From IMG/VR virus record IMGVR_UViG_2537562091_000002: a stretch of DNA of 5,175 nucleotides; one strand, written 5' to 3'. Source of the DNA: a virus (taxonomy: Duplodnaviria > Heunggongvirae > Uroviricota > Caudoviricetes). Below are positions 1 to 5,175 of the stretch, one piece after another. The position numbers and the translations under genes were made by a program. The notes under the pieces are model-generated. The model ran no database searches. It had not been told where the DNA came from and worked only from the letters and a program-made list of their open reading frames with translations. Within the stretch, counting starts at the first letter, position 1; every line of letters begins with the position of its first letter.

Positions 1-195
1 CCTGTCATACGCGTAAAACAGCCAGCGCTGGCGCGATTTAGCCCCGACATAGCCCCACTGTTCGTCCATTTCCGCGCAGACGATGACGTCACTGCCCGGC
101 TGTATGCGCGAGGTTACCGACTGCGGCCTGAGTTTTTTAAGTGACGTAAAATCGTGTTGAGGCCAACGCCCATAATGCGGGCTGTTGCCCGGCAT
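1..195 (-). CDS. insB: IS1 InsB, 5' part only (65 codons; 3' end lies beyond the window)
   Basis: Minus-strand ATG at 193-195, then [65 protein letters not shown] to position 1; overlaps insA in another frame as in canonical IS1. Confidence 0.8.
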
Positions 196-389
196 CCAAC
201 GCCATTCATGGCCATATCAATGATTTTCTGGTGCGTACCGGGTTGAGAAGCGGTGTAAGTGAACTGCAGTTGCCATGTTTTACGGCAGTGAGAGCAGAGA
301 TAGCGCTGATGTCCGGCAGTGCTTTTGCCGTTACGCACCACCCCGTCAGTAGCTGAACAGGAGGGACAGCTGATAGAAACAGAAGCCAC
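114..389 (-). CDS. insA: IS1 InsA (transposition regulator / N-terminal part of the InsAB' transposase), GTG start
   Basis: 91-aa translation [40 protein letters not shown]...LKNSGRSR matches recalled IS1 InsA throughout; stop TAA at 114-116. Confidence 0.95.
132..138 (-). other. IS1 A6C slippery run (programmed -1 frameshift site producing InsAB')
   Basis: Minus strand reads TTAAAAAACTC here, at the insA/insB overlap. The role of this motif in IS1 is established knowledge. Confidence 0.7.
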
Positions 390-421
390 TGGAGCACCTC
401 AAAAACACCATCATACACTAA

Positions 422-444
422 ATCAGTAAGTTGGCAGCATCACC
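422..444. repeat. IS1 terminal inverted repeat (insA-proximal end)
   Basis: ATCAGTAAGTTGGCAGCATCACC is the exact reverse complement of the recalled 23-bp IS1 IR. Confidence 0.85.
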
Positions 445-517: not shown

Positions 518-811
518 TCACCCACGATTAACCAACAGCCAGATCAGCAGACACGCCACCACCGGCACAGCAAAATCCATCAGGCTTGCCACATCCCAAA
601 CACGCGGATCAAAACCGCCCCACCACGGCATGTTAATCCGCTTGCCATGCCCGAACATTTCAATCCAGCGATATTCTGCCTGGGTGTGTTCACGCGCAAT
701 GAAGAACGTACAACCAGCTATCGCCCCATAAGCCCAGTTTCCGGTAAAAAGACCAACCAGTGTCTGCGCAGCCACAGCACAAAGCGCATGAAGAAAAGGT
801 GTTATATCCAT
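518..811 (-). CDS. Small predicted membrane protein (97 aa), function unknown; last gene of the post-fibre cassette
   Basis: ORF with ATG at 809-811 preceded by AGGAGGAG immediately after the upstream stop. Hydrophobic stretches FLHALCAVAAQTLVGLF, WAYGAIAGCTFFIA and FAVPVVACLLIWLLV flank a charged loop containing WWGGFDPRVWD. No family recognised by eye. Confidence 0.6.
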   Translation of the reverse strand: MDITPFLHALCAVAAQTLVGLFTGNWAYGAIAGCTFFIAREHTQAEYRWIEMFGHGKRINMPWWGGFDPRVWDVASLMDFAVPVVACLLIWLLVNRG

Positions 812-821
812 TACTCCTCCT

Positions 822-1526
822 TTATCTAATATCGCTTCGGGAAGTTAATAACAACTTTAATTCTGACTCAAGTTCATCAACTCTTTCAGTCAGTTTCTGG
901 ATATGGTGAATCAGTGGAACAACCAGACGTTCGTACATTACACCTTCGGCAACAAGGCCATTGCTGGAAATAGCTTCAGGAGCATCATCTTCGTTAGCTG
1001 GTCGCCAGTGTACAAACTGAGGAGCAATTTCTCCTACTTCCTCGGCAATCAATCCGTAGAATCCCCAGTCACGCCTGTCATTTTCGCATTGCGACCTGTA
1101 CCACACAGGGCGCATCCTGAAAATGAGATCGGCGTGCTCTGAATCTATTGTCTCTACTGAATGTTTATAGCGGATAGACGATGTTGACCGCAGCACAGAC
1201 GAAATTGCAGGGTCAGGATTAAGATAAAGGTTTGCCGCCGCTGTAGTCGTGGCCAAATTCCATAAATAAAACGCTTCACGACCTGTCAGTGGATAAAAAT
1301 CTCCGCCATAACGACCACTTTCCAGATCGTTCACTTCCACTTTGTTTTTCAGCTTATTATCAACTTCAGTTTTTGTGTATCTGGAGCTGATATCCTGCTT
1401 TGCACTGGTCATCTCAGTCTGAAGCGTTGATACTTTTCTGCTAATTGATGAAATATCTTCCTTAGCTTTACTGACATCCCCCTTTAGCTTGGTGATATCT
1501 CCTGGAATTACTGTCGATGTAGCCAT
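822..1526 (-). CDS. Standalone coiled-coil protein (234 aa) with a C-terminal peptidase-S74-type intramolecular chaperone domain (tail-fibre/tailspike auto-chaperone type)
   Basis: ATG at 1524-1526, with GAGG overlapping the upstream stop 9 nt before it. Residues about 10-65 show 3-4 spaced hydrophobics (heptad pattern). Residues about 116-234 (SSIRYKHSVETID...RPVWYR...GLIAEEVGEIAPQFV...YERLVVPLIHHIQKL...ELESELKLL) fit the recalled S74 IMC consensus (SDrrlK...lrPvsYrY...GliAQEv...). Confidence 0.8.
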   Translation of the reverse strand: MATSTVIPGDITKLKGDVSKAKEDISSISRKVSTLQTEMTSAKQDISSRYTKTEVDNKLKNKVEVNDLESGRYGGDFYPLTGREAFYLWNLATTTAAANLYLNPDPAISSVLRSTSSIRYKHSVETIDSEHADLIFRMRPVWYRSQCENDRRDWGFYGLIAEEVGEIAPQFVHWRPANEDDAPEAISSNGLVAEGVMYERLVVPLIHHIQKLTERVDELESELKLLLTSRSDIR

Positions 1527-1535
1527 TTTCCTGCC

Positions 1536-1817
1536 TCACATCCAGCCACGAAGTTGATGCTCAACAACAACCGCGTATTTATCGAATATTGACGATTTTT
1601 TTGCATCATTAATGATGCGCACGTTTACAAAATATCCGTCTTCCTTAACACATACCGGCTCGCCATCTTCAGTAAGTTCTCCGGTTTCTTTGTACACGTT
1701 ACCTATCACGTCAATAAGAATATCATCCTGCATCGACTCGTCATCATAATAGCCAGCACTCTTCATAAAGGCCGAAAAGTCGGCCTTGTCTGTGAATTTG
1801 ATAATTAAATCTCGCAT
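1536..1817 (-). CDS. Small acidic hypothetical protein (93 aa), translationally coupled to the fibre gene
   Basis: ATG at 1815-1817 overlaps the fibre stop (minus strand reads TAATG); GGGAGAG lies upstream. Asp/Glu-rich product (MRDLIIKFTDKADFSAFMKSAGYYDDESMQDD...). No similarity to Tfa recognised. Confidence 0.6.
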   Translation of the reverse strand: MRDLIIKFTDKADFSAFMKSAGYYDDESMQDDILIDVIGNVYKETGELTEDGEPVCVKEDGYFVNVRIINDAKKSSIFDKYAVVVEHQLRGWM

Positions 1818-3784
1818 TATATTATCTCTCCCATTTGCGCATCGGTTAATTCTTTATGCCATATTCTAAAATTCCTGATATAACCAAATAAATGACGTAA
1901 GCCGGCTGTAGTCTGGCCTCCAATCCTTATACCTGTAGCACCACTAACACTCTTCCACGTTGTTGATGCTGGTGTTGATAAAACCCCATTGCAGCCAGCC
2001 TGAAACTTGCCATCGCTTTTTATTCTATATACAGCGATAATCTTTCTTGGGTAATTTCCAGGTGGAAATGATATTGGATTACCAAATTGAACATATGGAG
2101 TTCCTACACTACCTGCTGTATTTCTGAATGCAAAAACAAAAGCGTCGTCTTTTGTTTTAAATCCTGTTATATCATAAATTCTAGGCGCGGAATTTGGTGC
2201 CATAGACCAATTTTTATTCACTTCAACCATGCAGGTTAAAGGTTTGCTGGCCATGTTATTTTTACAAGGCAATGTAACAATATCGCTTGCTCGCGTTGAT
2301 GCAACTGTATCGGAAATGATAAAAGATGATGCGCATGAGCCGCCTTCAAATTGTGGTGTCGTAACATCCAAATATTCCCCGCCCAAATAAGTTCCAGGTG
2401 AAACAGGTGGAGCAATTTGGATCTGAGAGCCAACCATATTATCAATAGCTTCAGATTGATATGTAACCTCGAAATAAATCCATCCATTAGATTCTTTCTC
2501 CGCTCGGGCGGTTATTCTTGCAGCCCCTCCTCCCGTTTTCCTAATGGACATATCTGTTATATTAAGATATGCATCTGCCAGATAAAAATATGCGGACCCG
2601 TCATATCTTTCAAATCTTATACGACATTGTATATTAGCACTATCGCTTTTTACACGACATGATGTTGTAACATACTTTTCAGTTCCAGTAACATCGACAC
2701 CTCTTCCTCCTGAAACCGCAGCGATATTCATTGTCGTATTTGTCCCAATTTTTTCGTCCTTTATTTGAAACCGCCCATAAGTAAAGCCAAACTCATCAAC
2801 ACCACTTTCTGTTATAGTTACACTTGTTGTAGCTCCCCACTTAGATGGCGTAAGTGAATTAAGATGATAGTTGGTTCTTTGTCCTTCAATCAGCAAACCT
2901 TCTCGTTCAAATCGCGGTTCGTCAACTTCAGCAACGGTTAATACTCCTGATTTATTAATGTATGTTGCACCTGATGCGCGTTTGAAGCTAACAACCTTAT
3001 CGGATGGCATTTTAATAACATCATCACCTACAGTTATTTGCTTATAACCAGGCGAAAAGCCAGCAAGCATATCCAGTGAATCGTTAAACGGTATCCACAC
3101 ATCGGGAAGCGGCTGCAAAACTTGTTTATACGGCTCCGCAGCCTGGCTTGCATACTCTCTGGCTGCGTCTTCACTTGCTTTTGCAGCCGTCTGGCTTGCA
3201 GCGGATGCTTTCGCCGAGTTAGCCGCCGCAGTCTCGCTCGCCTTTGCGTTGGTTTCACTGGTTTTTGCAGCTTTTTGACTGTTGGCTGATGCAGTGGCAG
3301 AAGAAGCCGCCGCACTTGCAGAACCAGCTGCGGCACTCTCGCTTTGGGCCGCTGCATCCTGACTGTTTTTCGCCGCAGTTTCGCTGGCTTTGGCATTCGT
3401 TTCGCTGGTCTTCGCTGCCGTCTGGCTGGACTTTGCGTTAGTTTCGCTCGTCTTCGCTGCTTTCTGGCTGTTAGCTGCAGCAGTTGCTGATCCAGCTGCT
3501 GAAGTCGCAGAACCGGCTGCCGCACTCTCGCTTTCGGCTGCTGCAGCCTGACTGCTTTTCGCCGCAGTTTCACTGGTTTTGGCATTCGTTTCGCTTGTTT
3601 TCGCTGCCGCCTGGCTGGACTTTGCGTTGGTTTCGCTCGTCTTTGCTGCTGTCTCGCTATTTTTCGCGTTGTTTTCTGATTTTTTAGCTGCTGTCGCGGA
3701 GTTTGCCGATGCAGTCTGCGAGGCCGCTGCCGCCTGTGCGCTGTTAACCTGAATCGGTTCGTGCTGCCTTTGCGGTTTCCTGAT
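1817..3784 (-). CDS. Side tail fibre protein (Stf family), N-terminally truncated remnant. Open frame 3784-1817 with no canonical start; the only start candidate is TTG at 3116-3118. C-terminal LamG/concanavalin-A-like lectin-type domain.
   Basis: Manual translation of the frame continuous with the 1817..3118 ORF stays open up to TGA at 3785-3787. Residues upstream of 3118 read ...AAKTSETNAKASETAAKNSQDAAAQSESAAAGSA..., typical of lambda Stf-type shaft repeats. The C-terminus ...IGGQTTAGLRHLFGYIRNFRIWHKELTDAQMGEII fits the LamG signature (IGG...G.IDEVRIYNRALSAEEI). Confidence 0.8.
   Translation of the reverse strand: MRKPQRQHEPIQVNSAQAAAASQTASANSATAAKKSENNAKNSETAAKTSETNAKSSQAAAKTSETNAKTSETAAKSSQAAAAESESAAAGSATSAAGSATAAANSQKAAKTSETNAKSSQTAAKTSETNAKASETAAKNSQDAAAQSESAAAGSASAAASSATASANSQKAAKTSETNAKASETAAANSAKASAASQTAAKASEDAAREYASQAAEPYKQVLQPLPDVWIPFNDSLDMLAGFSPGYKQITVGDDVIKMPSDKVVSFKRASGATYINKSGVLTVAEVDEPRFEREGLLIEGQRTNYHLNSLTPSKWGATTSVTITESGVDEFGFTYGRFQIKDEKIGTNTTMNIAAVSGGRGVDVTGTEKYVTTSCRVKSDSANIQCRIRFERYDGSAYFYLADAYLNITDMSIRKTGGGAARITARAEKESNGWIYFEVTYQSEAIDNMVGSQIQIAPPVSPGTYLGGEYLDVTTPQFEGGSCASSFIISDTVASTRASDIVTLPCKNNMASKPLTCMVEVNKNWSMAPNSAPRIYDITGFKTKDDAFVFAFRNTAGSVGTPYVQFGNPISFPPGNYPRKIIAVYRIKSDGKFQAGCNGVLSTPASTTWKSVSGATGIRIGGQTTAGLRHLFGYIRNFRIWHKELTDAQMGEII
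3240..3720. repeat. In-frame tandem direct repeat, period 189 bp (63 codons), about 2.5 copies, encoding the fibre shaft low-complexity repeats
   Basis: Near-identical blocks start at 3321 and 3510 (GAACCAGCTGCGGCACTCTCGCTTTGGGCC... vs GAACCGGCTGCCGCACTCTCGCTTTCGGCT...). The sub-motif CTTTGCGTT.GTTTC.CT.GT recurs near 3242, 3431 and 3621. Confidence 0.85.
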
Positions 3785-3791
3785 TCAGCAT
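3744..3791 (-). pseudogene. 15-codon stub (MLNQETAKAARTDSG*), interpreted as the remnant 5' end of the gene after nu1 (terminase large subunit by position)
   Basis: ATG overlaps the nu1 stop as TAATG and is preceded by AGGAGGAG. The frame stops after 15 codons exactly where the Stf-type repeat sequence begins. Too short to identify by sequence; the call rests on position. Confidence 0.35.
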
Positions 3792-4285
3792 TACTCCTCC
3801 TGCTGTAATTCCTCCTCATCATCCGCACCTGCTTCAGTCACCCGCAGGGCTATCTGATCGCGCAGATCATCAATAATGGACTGAACACGGCTCACAGCGG
3901 CAGGCTGCAGACCGCAGTCACGTTCAAGAATATCCGGTAATGTCTCCAGCACCTGCACGACCGCTTTTGCCCAGATGGCAAACTCCCGTCTGACATCACT
4001 GGCCGGAATGAGTTGTGCCGTTTCCTGTTCGAACTTAAGACGCTCACGTTCAGACTGATACCAGGCTTTGCGCTCATGCGCGTCCATTTCGCCTTCTGCA
4101 ACCGGCGGTGGTAATGCCAGAAATGCCGACACAATATCAACCACCCGATAAAGCTTGAGGTTGCTTTCATGCCCCCCTGCAACGGGTAGATTTTGCAGCC
4201 TTGCCGCAGCAGTCTGGCGATGTACACCTGACAATGCCGCCAGTTGACTGATATTCAGCGTCAGATTTTTTAACTCTCGATCCAT
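3791..4285 (-). CDS. Terminase small subunit, lambda Nu1 / Noh family (164 aa)
   Basis: ATG at 4283-4285 with GGAG 7 nt upstream. N-terminal HTH-like segment LNISQLAALSGVHRQTAAARL parallels lambda Nu1 KKQLADIFGASIRTIQNWQ. Sits about 175 bp downstream of a cosN-like site, as in lambda. Confidence 0.85.
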   Translation of the reverse strand: MDRELKNLTLNISQLAALSGVHRQTAAARLQNLPVAGGHESNLKLYRVVDIVSAFLALPPPVAEGEMDAHERKAWYQSERERLKFEQETAQLIPASDVRREFAIWAKAVVQVLETLPDILERDCGLQPAAVSRVQSIIDDLRDQIALRVTEAGADDEEELQQEE

Positions 4286-4500
4286 ACCCGCTCCAGAATG
4301 TTTTAAACATGCATCTTGCGAACAACTTTAGGCAAACGGTGTTAGTGATGAACAAAAAACAATCAGAATCGACACCATAAAAATAAAACAACTGTAATAT
4401 CAATCAATTACAGTAGTGGTGATGACGAATAAAATTTCAAAAACTAGCCTTTTTCCGCGACGCTCCCGCCCCGTGGCAGGGCCCCCCCACTGGGAGGACC
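4286..4500 (-). other. cos region: cosN-like 12-mer (minus strand GGGCGGGAGCGT, plus 4460-4471), cosQ-like sequence on the high-coordinate side, AT-rich cosB-like spacer towards nu1
   Basis: Minus strand reads ...GGGTCCTCCCAGTGGGGGGGCCCTGCCACG GGGCGGGAGCGT CGCGGAAAAAGG... Recalled lambda is ...GGGTCCTTTCCGGTGATCCGACAGGTTACG GGGCGGCGACCT CGCGGGTTTTCGC... The 12-mer matches 8/12, both nick-flanking triplets/pentamers match, and the spacing to GGGTCCT is the same. Confidence 0.55.
4391..4414. repeat. Perfect 8-bp inverted repeat with 8-bp spacer (ACTGTAAT-ATCAATCA-ATTACAGT) inside the cosB-like spacer
   Basis: Read directly from the sequence; function unknown. Confidence 0.5.
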
Positions 4501-4718
4501 CGACAGCCTGACAACCGTGACGAGCATCTGTAACAGAGCTTTACATAATGGCATGGGGATAATTCAGAAGGACATCACAGCATGCCCACACAAATTAGTG
4601 TGAGTGTCCTGTTTCTTACTACGCGCAGGACTGACGAGCATGAGGGGAAAATACGAGAAACGAAATGCCTTATCTTCAGAAATGCAGCCGGCATCCGAAC
4701 TGGACGATATTGTAAATT

Positions 4719-4757
4719 TGATCTTACCCAGCAATAGTGGACACGCGGCTAAGTGAG
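4719..4757. repeat. IS3 left terminal inverted repeat (approximate extent)
   Basis: Element terminus begins with TG at 4719; the roughly 39-bp IR length is recalled, not measured. Confidence 0.6.
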
Positions 4758-4783
4758 TAAACTCTCAGTCAGAGGTGACTCAC

Positions 4784-5083
4784 ATGACAAAAACAGTATC
4801 AACCAGTAAAAAACCCCGTAAACAGCATTCGCCTGAATTTCGCAGTGAAGCCCTGAAGCTTGCTGAACGCATCGGTGTTACTGCCGCAGCCCGTGAACTC
4901 AGCCTGTATGAATCACAGCTCTACAACTGGCGCAGTAAACAGCAAAATCAGCAGACGTCTTCTGAACGTGAACTGGAGATGTCTACCGAGATTGCACGTC
5001 TCAAACGCCAGCTGGCAGAACGGGATGAAGAGCTGGCTATCCTCCAAAAGGCCGCGACATACTTCGCGAAGCGCCTGAAATGA
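4784..5083 (+). CDS. insE: IS3 OrfA (InsE). The ORF track starts at GTG 4775; the canonical ATG is at 4784 with AGAGG upstream.
   Basis: Translation MTKTVSTSKKPRKQHSPEFRSEALKLAERIGVTAAARELSLYESQLYNWRSKQQNQ...ATYFAKRLK matches recalled InsE. The CCAAAAG slippery motif lies at about 5043-5049. Confidence 0.9.
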   Translation: MTKTVSTSKKPRKQHSPEFRSEALKLAERIGVTAAARELSLYESQLYNWRSKQQNQQTSSERELEMSTEIARLKRQLAERDEELAILQKAATYFAKRLK

Positions 5084-5175
5084 AGTATGTCTTTATTGAA
5101 AACATCAGGCTGAGTTCAGCATCAAAGCAATGTGCCGCGTGCTCCGGGTGGCCCGCAGCGGCTGGTATACGTGGT
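5080..5175 (+). CDS. insF: IS3 OrfB (InsF), 5' part only, with an apparent 1-nt deletion in an A-run (possibly inactivating, possibly a homopolymer sequencing error)
   Basis: ATG at 5080 encodes MKYVFIE in frame 1. The conserved continuation HQAEFSIKAMCRVLRVARSGWYTW is encoded from 5103 in a different frame. The window has GAAAAC where the recalled sequence has GAAAAAC. Confidence 0.7.
   Translation, partial: MKYVFIENIRLSSASKQCAACSGWPAAAGIRG

Follow-up and report, generated by a model that had tools for sequence, protein, structure and literature searches.

The window analyzed here, meaning the whole 5,175-nucleotide (5.2-kb) stretch of DNA, carries an authentic lambda-type cos site on its minus strand, beside an intact gene for a small terminase subunit (terS). 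Around these lie a stub of the large-terminase gene (terL), a side-tail-fibre fragment, phage right-end DNA, and two insertion sequences. In window coordinates, the features are as follows:

1..444, minus strand: partial IS1, running off the window edge; 99.6-100% identical to copies that relatives have annotated as IS1A
1817..3745, minus strand: side-tail-fibre gene fragment, lacking the N-terminus and start codon, with the frame open from the junction onward
3745..3746, no strand: deletion junction at which terL codon 16 meets the side-tail-fibre repeat region; the overlap is 2 bp
3744..3791, minus strand: terL remnant of 15 codons, MLNQETAKAARTDSG, plus a TAA created by the deletion junction
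3791..4285, minus strand: terS, intact, 164 aa, of the DUF1441/PHROG 141 type, a remote relative of Nu1
4286..4459, minus strand: cosB, the presumed TerS-binding and IHF-bending region, 174 bp between cosN and terS
4388..4417, no strand: 11-nt inverted repeat ACAACTGTAAT / ATTACAGTAGT, with one arm on either side of the IHF site
4398..4410, plus strand: IHF consensus site TATCAATCAATTA, spanning positions 62-74 from the nick; in lambda orientation it is on the bottom strand
4439..4471, minus strand: 33-nt block (the 12-mer plus CGCGGAAAAAGGCTAGTTTTT), common to phages with differing cosB and TerS
4460..4471, minus strand: cosN cohesive-end 12-mer GGGCGGGAGCGT, with which the phage cdtI and Tritos records begin
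4472..4494, minus strand: cosQ-to-cosN spacer, 23 nt, with a run of seven G at 4483-4489
4495..4501, minus strand: cosQ, GGGTCCT, the packaging-termination element; the exact lambda heptamer, 23 nt before the nick
4502..4718, minus strand: DNA of the phage right end, upstream of cosQ and truncated by IS3, with homology to the corresponding ends of 569R4, HannyBb, and Tritos
4719..5175, plus strand: left end of IS3 with orfA, situated between the lysis/late region and cos; relatives have it annotated as an IS3 family transposase

The side-tail-fibre fragment matches the PHROG 1419 tail protein (E 1.6e-183, profile positions 359-793) and contains a 189-bp tandem repeat at 3224-3658. When the window is compared by BLAST with E. 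coli REL606 and EC931, side-tail-fibre homology stops at 3746 and homology to terL, terS, and cos begins at 3745. The 15 codons that survive of terL are residues 1-15 of a 700-aa large terminase (GpA_ATPase plus GpA_nuclease) encoded by an intact relative, IMG/VR locus L025. A preliminary description of this DNA, made from the letters alone, had called the small terminase an orphan without a large subunit, and the stub bears this out. Because terL is reduced to 15 codons in the window and is full in L025, the module is incomplete: the GpA-family terL that adjoins a lambda-like cos is missing, and membership in this cos family is by descent. The IS3 insertion point is the same in EC931 and others. 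Among complete E. coli genomes, none matches the window collinearly over its full length (the best cos/terS segment matches are 99.6-99.9% identical), and the 30-mer across the deletion junction is absent from the GTDB species representatives.

The TerS protein belongs to the DUF1441/PHROG 141 family by a full-length profile match, covering positions 1-146 of the 147 in Pfam DUF1441 (E 2.7e-41, 141 bits against a cut-off of 35) and matching PHROG 141, "terminase small subunit," at E 7e-74. Matches to the family of lambda Nu1 (PHROG 57) are more distant: TerS reaches E 8e-10 against PHROG 57, and Nu1 reaches 5.6e-8 against PHROG 141 in the reciprocal comparison. An hhalign comparison of TerS and Nu1 is collinear over 141 columns (E 8e-4, at a probability of just 24%), and BLASTP of TerS against Nu1 finds nothing (E = 20). 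By these scores, TerS is a remote relative of the Nu1 family and not a member of it. A search for solved structures of TerS found none. The protein is 100% identical to the TerS of phage 569R4, and its C-terminal two-thirds are identical between two cosB classes, A and B. At the DNA level, the window terS is identical to alleles at loci with a full TerL and has no nonsynonymous change. A dN/dS test of selection on terS was dropped because this identity leaves no post-deletion divergence to measure. Promoter-like matches around cos and terS are weak only (9/12). The RefSeq label of the terS gene is merely "DUF1441 family protein."

Read along the minus strand, the cos region runs from cosQ through the spacer and cosN into cosB and terS. 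The 12-mer GGGCGGGAGCGT is preceded by ...CCACG and followed by CGCGG. The top strand is probably nicked between 4472 and 4471; base 4472 corresponds to the last base of the cdtI and Tritos records. Terminase would nick the two strands with a stagger of 12 bp, giving the virion ends. In lambda-like cosN sites, positions 7-12 form the half of the 12-mer that is free to vary (PMC4669245). The window 12-mer differs from that of lambda at four positions, all in this half (7, 8, 9, and 11), and keeps GGGCGG, the CG dinucleotides at both nick positions, and cosQ; both the cosQ spacing and the cosN conservation thus agree with the definition of a lambda-like cos given by Feiss (PMC4669245). The terS ATG at 4285 is position 187 from the nick (191 for lambda nu1), at a distance of 174 bp from the 12-mer. 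The preliminary description had placed a cos site at 4440-4520, and its particulars stand: a cosQ-like GGGTCCT and a cosN-like 12-mer, conserved nick flanks in the form of the two CG dinucleotides, a lambda-like cosQ spacing (23 nt in the window and in lambda), and a terS start about 175 bp from the 12-mer.

The lambda-like length of the spacer deserves a qualification. Lambda and N15 have 23 nt, and 116 of the 125 related loci have 22 nt; the window equals lambda because of one additional G in the run at 4483-4489. This seventh G is private to the window, and the relatives at the same locus, D2 and EC931, have six. It could be a homopolymer sequencing error; alternatively, as an atypical feature in this class of cos, it could impair termination-type cutting. 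The cosQ heptamer itself is invariant across an alignment of 59 window-like cos regions.

Alignment to lambda and N15, part of the check originally proposed for the site, does not decide the matter on its own. The 12-mer matches lambda at 8/12 positions and N15 at 7/12; a search of the window with the lambda cosN core, allowing up to 3 mismatches, finds no match; and the ungapped identity to the 33-nt core is 19/33, a score tied by an unrelated site at 2011-1979. Likeness to lambda alone was rejected as proof because an unrelated site scores equally. The composite arrangement, by contrast, stands out from shuffled sequence: the pattern GGGTCCT-N20-26-GGGCGGNNNCNTCGCGG is found at one place in the window and in 0 of 200 shuffles.

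The identity of the site is carried by its match to the ends of phage records. The records of cdtI (AB285204) and Tritos (OV696610, deposited as linear) open with 33 nt identical to the 12-mer and the 21 nt that follow it, and both end in ...GGGTCCT(22 nt)CCACG, directly before the 12-mer. The full 33-nt block is identical in cdtI, Tritos, PhiR47_1, and the window's own class, across differing neighbors: cdtI and Tritos have a cosB unrelated to that of the window and a TerS 40% identical, and PhiR47_1 has a variant cosB. Phages 569R4, PhiR47_1, and phi458 also have the identical 12-mer upstream of their terS. More widely, the cos 24-mer is present in at least 120 IMG/VR contigs, and 2,113 of 5,426 complete E. 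coli genomes (~39%) have a match to 4286-4530, which covers cosB, cosN, and cosQ. The ends of the IMG/VR contigs were rejected as evidence of physical termini because the cos match sits well within the contig in most of the listed loci; judging by contig names, many of them are apparently predicted prophages in isolate genomes. A full-text literature search for the 12-mer string returned no phage paper containing it, and the paper on LF82/Tritos does not discuss genome ends.

The cosB region is likewise that of known phages. Over positions 34-186 past the nick (ungapped), it is 92-100% identical to 58 other loci, phi458 and 569R4 among them. Its place between cosN and terS and its IHF consensus are as expected of a lambda-like cos. 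The consensus WATCAANNNNTTR is matched once in the 5.2-kb window (0.29 matches expected), and 101 of the 125 loci have a match at a distance of 62 or 64 nt from the nick; the 62-nt sites vary at the four N positions only. The 11-nt inverted repeat around the IHF site may be an architectural element for TerS or IHF. Apart from it, a search of cosB for R-type repeats found short repeats at chance level only. The heptamer TCATCAC occurs on both sides of the IHF site, which by our own estimate is about the chance expectation for 186 bp. In N15, one R site can suffice. Searches found no terminators around cos, and an Rfam scan of the window found no RNA family.

By sequence comparison, the same DNA sits in related E. 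coli genomes in the Qin defective prophage at ydfJ. The window does not reach as far as ydfJ, and its own Qin location is probable from these relatives. Gene order agrees with Qin: ydfJ', pinQ, tfa/stf, (lom, J'), terL', terS, cos, gnsB, cspI, rzpQ, rrrQ, and ess. Window segments are 99.8-99.97% identical to the Qin locus in REL606 and EC931, and 94-99.8% identical in D2. The deletions and IS insertions at this locus differ from lineage to lineage: REL606, of the B lineage, has lost cos and terS entirely; in D2, terS adjoins a fragment of lom; and in EC931, 1.5 kb of terL survives as a pseudogene. The EC931 element is about 28 kb long, with annotated integrase, excisionase, cI/cro-like, and replication-region genes and no head genes; its Q antiterminator gene has an internal stop. 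Among the related IMG/VR loci that could be scored, TerL is full in 26 and truncated in 11, and terS is disrupted in 3.

Taken together, cos and terS are very probably a module of a phage of the lambda supergroup, surviving in a Qin-type defective prophage. The source phage would have had a terminase in which a GpA-family large subunit was paired with a DUF1441-type small subunit. A deletion from terL codon 16 into the side-tail-fibre gene, together with the IS1 and IS3 insertions, would then have left the cos/terS module where it is found. The locus is an ordinary prophage remnant, and nothing marks it as a satellite.

By itself, the cos site is expected to be inert. It is probably still a substrate for the terminase of an infecting or co-resident phage of the same class (mEp460, phi458, or 569R4); a cognate terminase should recognize it because cosN, cosB, and TerS match those of isolated phages. 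Terminase does initiate at a prophage cos whose specificity matches its own (PMC4669245). From established lambda biology, the terminase would bind cosB and nick at 4471/4472 and, on the other strand, 12 nt away. Translocation would then proceed leftwards in window coordinates. Past terS and the remnant of the tail-fibre gene, it would reach host DNA on the side of ydfJ after ~6-7 kb. Without another cos further downstream, the motor would be expected to stall, leaving a full, tailless, non-infectious head. The Feiss laboratory has described this outcome for a lone prophage cos, at which initiation packages the adjacent host DNA and stalls at a full head; the stalled product is a tailless, non-infectious particle, and the productive outcome is recombination with the infecting phage (PMC4669245). 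Lateral transduction is not performed by cos phages (PMC12829572). At the window, the double-strand end could likewise promote recombination, and the cos/terS module could pass into an incoming phage.

The preliminary description had proposed that cos and the small terminase form the recognition module that a helper phage would need, and, as an idea it marked as speculative, that the remnant could be mobilized in the manner of a cos-type satellite. The first part stands in that cosN, cosB, and TerS are as in isolated phages; the second is unsupported, given a plain phage TerS and cosB, lineage-specific decay, and a dead-end outcome in the literature. In its fuller form, the proposal is that the remnant is, or becomes, a cos-type satellite for which helper infection leads to excision, replication, and packaging from its own cos into helper capsids. 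Several observations agree with it: neither cos nor terS is damaged and both equal phage alleles, the EC931 relative keeps integrase, excisionase, cI/cro-like, and replication-region genes without head genes, lambda and phage 80 transfer plasmids with a cloned cos (PMC6739421), and defective prophages are reported to excise or replicate during phage infection in some backgrounds (PMC3945230).

These observations are outweighed by what the locus lacks of a satellite's equipment. The cos satellites of E. coli (PICIs) have a redirecting protein, Rpp, and a cosB unlike that of the helper (PMC6739421, PMC9026076). Both are absent here: TerS is that of 569R4, and cosB is an ordinary phage allele (92-100% identical to phage and prophage copies). 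Nor is there the compact layout of a satellite, without structural or lysis genes; the window has tail-fibre fragments, and in relatives the window DNA is adjoined by lysis genes. The layout is not conserved, with different deletions and insertion sequences in each lineage and B strains without cos and terS; terS is disrupted in three related loci, Q has an internal stop in EC931, and IS3 stands between terS and the late region. The 5.2-kb window contains no integrase or excision genes, helper-responsive regulation, or replication module, and no excision, replication, or interference functions are encoded in it. Size also argues against the proposal. At 25-28 kb, the element has ~55-65% of the length of the 42-47 kb cognate phage genomes, and a dimer ~110-130%; in lambda, roughly 75-105% of the genome length is packageable, so neither monomer nor dimer fits well. 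On balance, a satellite is very improbable. Comparably slight is the prospect of either a Qin-type remnant with cos, TerS, and, as in EC931, integrase, excisionase, immunity, and replication genes that is in transition to helper dependence and might undergo excision, replication, and packaging from its own cos upon infection by a phage of the mEp460 class, or an orphan TerS that might steer a captured foreign TerL to the chromosomal cos and cut the yield of the invader.

A reading marginally less probable still is that the orphan cos and TerS are kept as a decoy of benefit to the host, diverting or poisoning the terminase of related phages and lowering their yield. Initiation at a prophage cos does waste capsids and reduce the yield of the infecting phage (Feiss and co-workers, PMC4669245), and a foreign TerL is a plausible partner for the orphan TerS, since the C-terminal two-thirds of TerS are the same in cosB classes A and B. 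The intact terS, free of nonsynonymous change, would suit maintenance; its DNA, however, equals alleles beside a full TerL, and so too little has changed since the deletion to reveal selection. The module has, moreover, been lost or broken in sister lineages, terS expression is doubtful because of the upstream IS3 and the weak 9/12 promoter-like match, and a single chromosomal cos absorbs few packaging events per cell. Last, a chance match to cosN in GC-rich intergenic DNA, for which the tie at 2011-1979 and the 8/12 score of the 12-mer could be cited, is next to impossible, being already refuted by the exact 33-nt identity with the ends of two phage records, the recurrence of the same DNA in many phages and prophages, the lambda-like placement upstream of terS, and the 0/200 shuffles.

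As a discovery, the remnant of a cos phage at this locus carries little weight, for the retention of cos in defective lambdoid prophages has already been described, as have its consequences: wasted packaging, recombination hotspots, and the donation of cos and terS to incoming phages. Its interest lies in annotation and in the comparison of cos classes. The pairing of cohesive end GGGCGGGAGCGT with a DUF1441-type small terminase looks very common in E. coli. In this cos class, as the comparison maps it, cosQ is invariant, the spacer measures 22 nt, different TerS types share the 33-nt block, and the IHF site stands 62-64 nt away from the nick. Such a map could help to set the genome ends of many lambdoid phage records.

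Among known systems, the closest in kind is DLP12 of K-12, also a defective lambdoid prophage with a cos between lysis genes and a small-terminase gene, from which the head genes have been lost. The DLP12 module is 98% identical to that of lambda and has the cohesive end GGGCGGCGACCT, whereas that of the window is GGGCGGGAGCGT; the window also differs in its TerS, of the DUF1441/PHROG 141 family, and in a TerL of 15 codons. The Qin prophage of K-12 presumably offers a further retained counterpart in nohA. DLP12 keeps cos, nu1, and a truncated A, and its nu1 works once recombined into lambda (PMC3945230). Recombination of lambda at the DLP12 cos is ~100-fold above that at Rac or Qin, with junctions clustered at cos (PMC3945230).

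The window resembles lambda itself in the IHF consensus between cosN and terS, in the position of the terS start (187 vs 191), and in the GpA family of the partner TerL in its intact relatives. It differs from lambda in 4 of the 12 cohesive-end bases, in an unrelated cosB in which R repeats (lambda R3-I1-R2-R1) are not recognized, in a TerS alike at the profile level only, and in that the TerL of its relatives is 25% identical to gpA. An identical cosN is found in cdtI, Tritos, mEp460, phi458, vB_EcoS-569R4, and PhiR47_1; in mEp460, phi458, and 569R4, the resemblance extends to cosB and terS, which are almost identical to those of the window (89-96% across the cos region). In contrast to the window, all six phages are complete, with TerL, head, and tail genes. 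Finally, PICIs of the EcCICFT073 type are, like the window's prophage, chromosomal elements without capsid genes in which lambda-like cosQ and cosN lie beside the gene for a small HTH protein, placed as cos and terS are in a phage (PMC6739421, PMC9026076). In a PICI, that protein is Rpp, which heterodimerizes with the helper TerS, cosB is private, and the element brings functions of its own for induction, excision, and replication, arranged in a compact layout that is conserved; the window has a standard phage TerS and the phage's own cosB in an IS-ridden remnant whose deletions vary by lineage.

The window holds a lambda-like cos, of an uncharacterised yet very common specificity class, in an ordinary defective prophage. 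An Rfam scan of the window returned no RNA families.

Features of the window, from an ORF listing, family scans and annotated E. coli genomes used for comparison
1-444: IS1, incomplete at the window edge
518-3745: tail-fibre cluster, genes on the minus strand (97-aa ORF, 234-aa fragment, 93-aa ORF, side-tail-fibre gene without its N-terminus)
822-1526, minus strand: 234-aa ORF with Peptidase_S74 chaperone domain
3745/3746: deletion junction
3791-3744, minus strand: large-terminase stub, 15 codons then a stop
4285-3791, minus strand: intact small-terminase gene, 164 aa
4286-4501: cos region
4471-4460, minus strand: cosN 12-mer
4501-4495, minus strand: cosQ, GGGTCCT
4502-4718: further phage DNA
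4719 onward: IS3

On the minus strand, GGGTCCT is followed by 23 nt ending in CCACG, by the 12-mer GGGCGGGAGCGT and then by CGCGGAAAAAGGCTAGTTTTT; the ATG of terS (4285) lies at position 187 from the nick, compared with 191 for lambda nu1. The pattern GGGTCCT-N20-26-GGGCGGNNNCNTCGCGG matches once in the window and in 0 of 200 shuffles. Pairwise alignment with lambda alone is equivocal because similarity is modest (8/12 for the 12-mer, against 7/12 for N15, and 19/33 for the 33-nt core) and the core score is equalled at an unrelated site, 2011-1979. Identity as cos is settled instead by where related phage records start, by recurrence in phages and genomes, and by a lambda-like pattern of conservation. 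As deposited, phages cdtI (AB285204) and Tritos (OV696610, linear) start exactly with GGGCGGGAGCGTCGCGGAAAAAGGCTAGTTTTT and finish with GGGTCCT plus 22 nt ending in CCACG, which would be a cut point as in lambda. The identical 12-mer lies upstream of terS in the isolated phages vB_EcoS-569R4, PhiR47_1 and phi458, and variants occupy the equivalent place in mEp213 (GGGCGGCGCGCT, given as the putative cos of that phage; PMC12315714), VT1-Sakai and Fels-1. A 24-mer from the site is present in at least 120 IMG/VR contigs, and the DNA of 4286-4530 is matched in 2113 of 5426 complete E. coli genomes; a full-text literature search found the 12-mer string in no phage paper. The lambda and window 12-mers differ at positions 7, 8, 9 and 11, while GGGCGG, cosQ and the CG dinucleotides on both flanks are retained, a pattern of variation that matches the Feiss laboratory's account of natural lambda-like cosN sites (PMC4669245). 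The conserved nick flanks and lambda-like spacing of the preliminary description are thus borne out. Separately, the mEp460_4F5 phage record (L009) begins 5 nt before the nick and is without 3 nt in or beside the 12-mer (GGGCGGGAGCG-CGG), apparently an artefact of assembling a genome with physical cohesive ends there.

Within the cosQ-cosN spacer, positions 4483-4489 form a run of seven G, whereas the same-locus relatives in the E. coli genomes D2 and EC931 have six, and the spacer is 22 nt in 116 of 125 loci. The extra G is an insertion private to the window or else an error in homopolymer sequencing; because of it, equality with the 23-nt lambda spacing is accidental, or itself a sequencing error.

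Downstream of the nick, the only IHF consensus match in the window is TATCAATCAATTA at 4398-4410 (0.29 expected across the whole window), located centrally in an 11-nt inverted repeat. A match on the same strand lies 62 or 64 nt from the nick in 101 of the 125 loci with this cosN, the 62-nt sites varying only at four degenerate positions. The distance is kept even in the cdtI/Tritos class, despite a cosB that is unrelated in other respects. The window site parallels I1 of lambda, between R3 and R2 (PMC9026076); no convincing R-type repeats were found in the window cosB. Since the first 33 nt past the nick are common to three cosB/TerS classes, this block fits a stretch that would be read by TerL rather than TerS. 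Phage PhiR47_1 (L014) has a variant cosB and a TerS that equals the window's from about residue 58 onward, differing only in the N-terminal helix-turn-helix third. This looks like a natural joint swap of DNA-binding domain and cosB, with cosN and the TerL-binding part kept.

Family scans place the small terminase in Pfam DUF1441 (E 2.7e-41) and in PHROG 141, "terminase small subunit" (E 7e-74). It matches PHROG 57, the family of lambda Nu1, at 8e-10, and Nu1 matches PHROG 141 at 5.6e-8; BLASTP against Nu1 gave no match, and a shallow profile-profile comparison with Nu1 was collinear but weak (E 8e-4, probability 24%). By these profile matches the protein is a remote Nu1 relative, not a Nu1 family member. 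No solved structure for this TerS was found. The protein is 100% identical to TerS of phage 569R4, and the terS gene has the same DNA sequence as in IMG/VR loci carrying a full 700-aa TerL, which has GpA_ATPase and GpA_nuclease domains and 25% identity to lambda gpA (E 6e-19). The stub in the window equals the first 15 residues of this TerL, followed by a TAA made by the junction: the 3745/3746 deletion, with a 2-bp overlap, fuses terL codon 16 to the Ala/Ser-rich side-tail-fibre repeat. The small terminase is indeed an orphan, as first described.

No genome searched is collinear with the window over its full length, and GTDB representatives lack the 30-mer across the junction. Pieces of the window match the Qin defective prophage at ydfJ with 99.8-99.97% identity in REL606 and EC931 and 94-99.8% in D2. 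The EC931 locus has the same IS3 insertion, a 1.5 kb terL pseudogene and a J fragment; in D2 a lom fragment directly abuts terS; REL606 and other B strains have lost cos and terS entirely; and the window's own deletion runs terL into stf. TerL is intact in 26 related IMG/VR loci and truncated in 11, and terS is broken in 3. Because lineages decay by different deletions, with TerL and terS variously broken, the locus bears the signature of neutral erosion and does not look like a maintained layout.

The IS3 insertion point (4719) is common to EC931, PK8276, QML220614 and TUM17668, and in REL606 and other B strains 11 bp of IS3 flank (4708-4718) is left before a J-gene fragment, which suggests an insertion older than several distinct later deletions. 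The 234-aa ORF (822-1526) matches no more than the final ~230 of the 1385 positions in a PHROG profile, among them the Peptidase_S74 intramolecular-chaperone domain; it is free-standing, yet RefSeq labels the relatives' copy an intact "tail fiber domain-containing protein". The side-tail-fibre frame (1817-3760, minus strand) is open for ~650 codons, without a start codon past the junction, and a 189-bp tandem repeat in it (3224-3658; 2.3 copies, 83% matches) codes for an Ala/Ser/Thr/Lys-rich shaft. In relatives L001 and L003, pinQ lies ~0.2 kb past the tail-fibre-assembly remnant, just left of the window's IS1. A 2025 paper links resistance to phage T2 to PinQ-driven inversion in Qin (PMC12529663), and the window's tail-fibre cassettes may be part of this invertible region.

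Alone, cos would be inactive. In a cell where a phage from the window's cosB/TerS class was growing, the phage terminase should bind the window cos and cut it, and packaging would most likely start at cosN and proceed leftwards through cosB and then terS, leaving the prophage after ~6-7 kb for the ydfJ-side chromosome, judging from D2. Feiss and co-workers describe packaging from a prophage cos as taking in adjacent host DNA and stalling at a full head to give a tailless, non-infectious particle, or alternatively, after a downstream crossover, a recombinant phage; productive helper packaging of passive prophages requires two tandem cos sites (PMC4669245). De Paepe et al. found lambda recombination ~100-fold commoner in the DLP12 region, which contains cos, than at Rac or Qin; the DLP12 junctions clustered at cos, and Dlp12 nu1 worked in lambda (PMC3945230). 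According to a 2026 paper, lateral transduction is not carried out by cos phages (PMC12829572).

The preliminary description further proposed, as a speculation, that the remnant is potentially mobilisable as a cos-type satellite, which is very unlikely. Its cos and terS are intact, a plasmid with cloned cos can be transferred by lambda and phage 80 (PMC6739421), and the Qin-type element of EC931 (L139, 313-338 kb) retains annotated integrase, excisionase, exonuclease, dicB, cI/cro-like and replication-region genes without head genes. However, the layout varies between relatives, the Q antiterminator gene of EC931 has an internal stop, IS3 parts terS from the late region, and neither monomer nor dimer of a 25-28 kb element suits a 42-47 kb head, given the packaging limits of lambda. 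A decoy of benefit to the host is likewise very unlikely. The site was correctly identified, whereas the satellite view of the element is incorrect or, at the least, lacks support: what defines the cos PICIs of E. coli is the redirecting protein Rpp together with a private cosB (PMC6739421, PMC9026076), whereas the TerS and cosB of the window are ordinary phage alleles.
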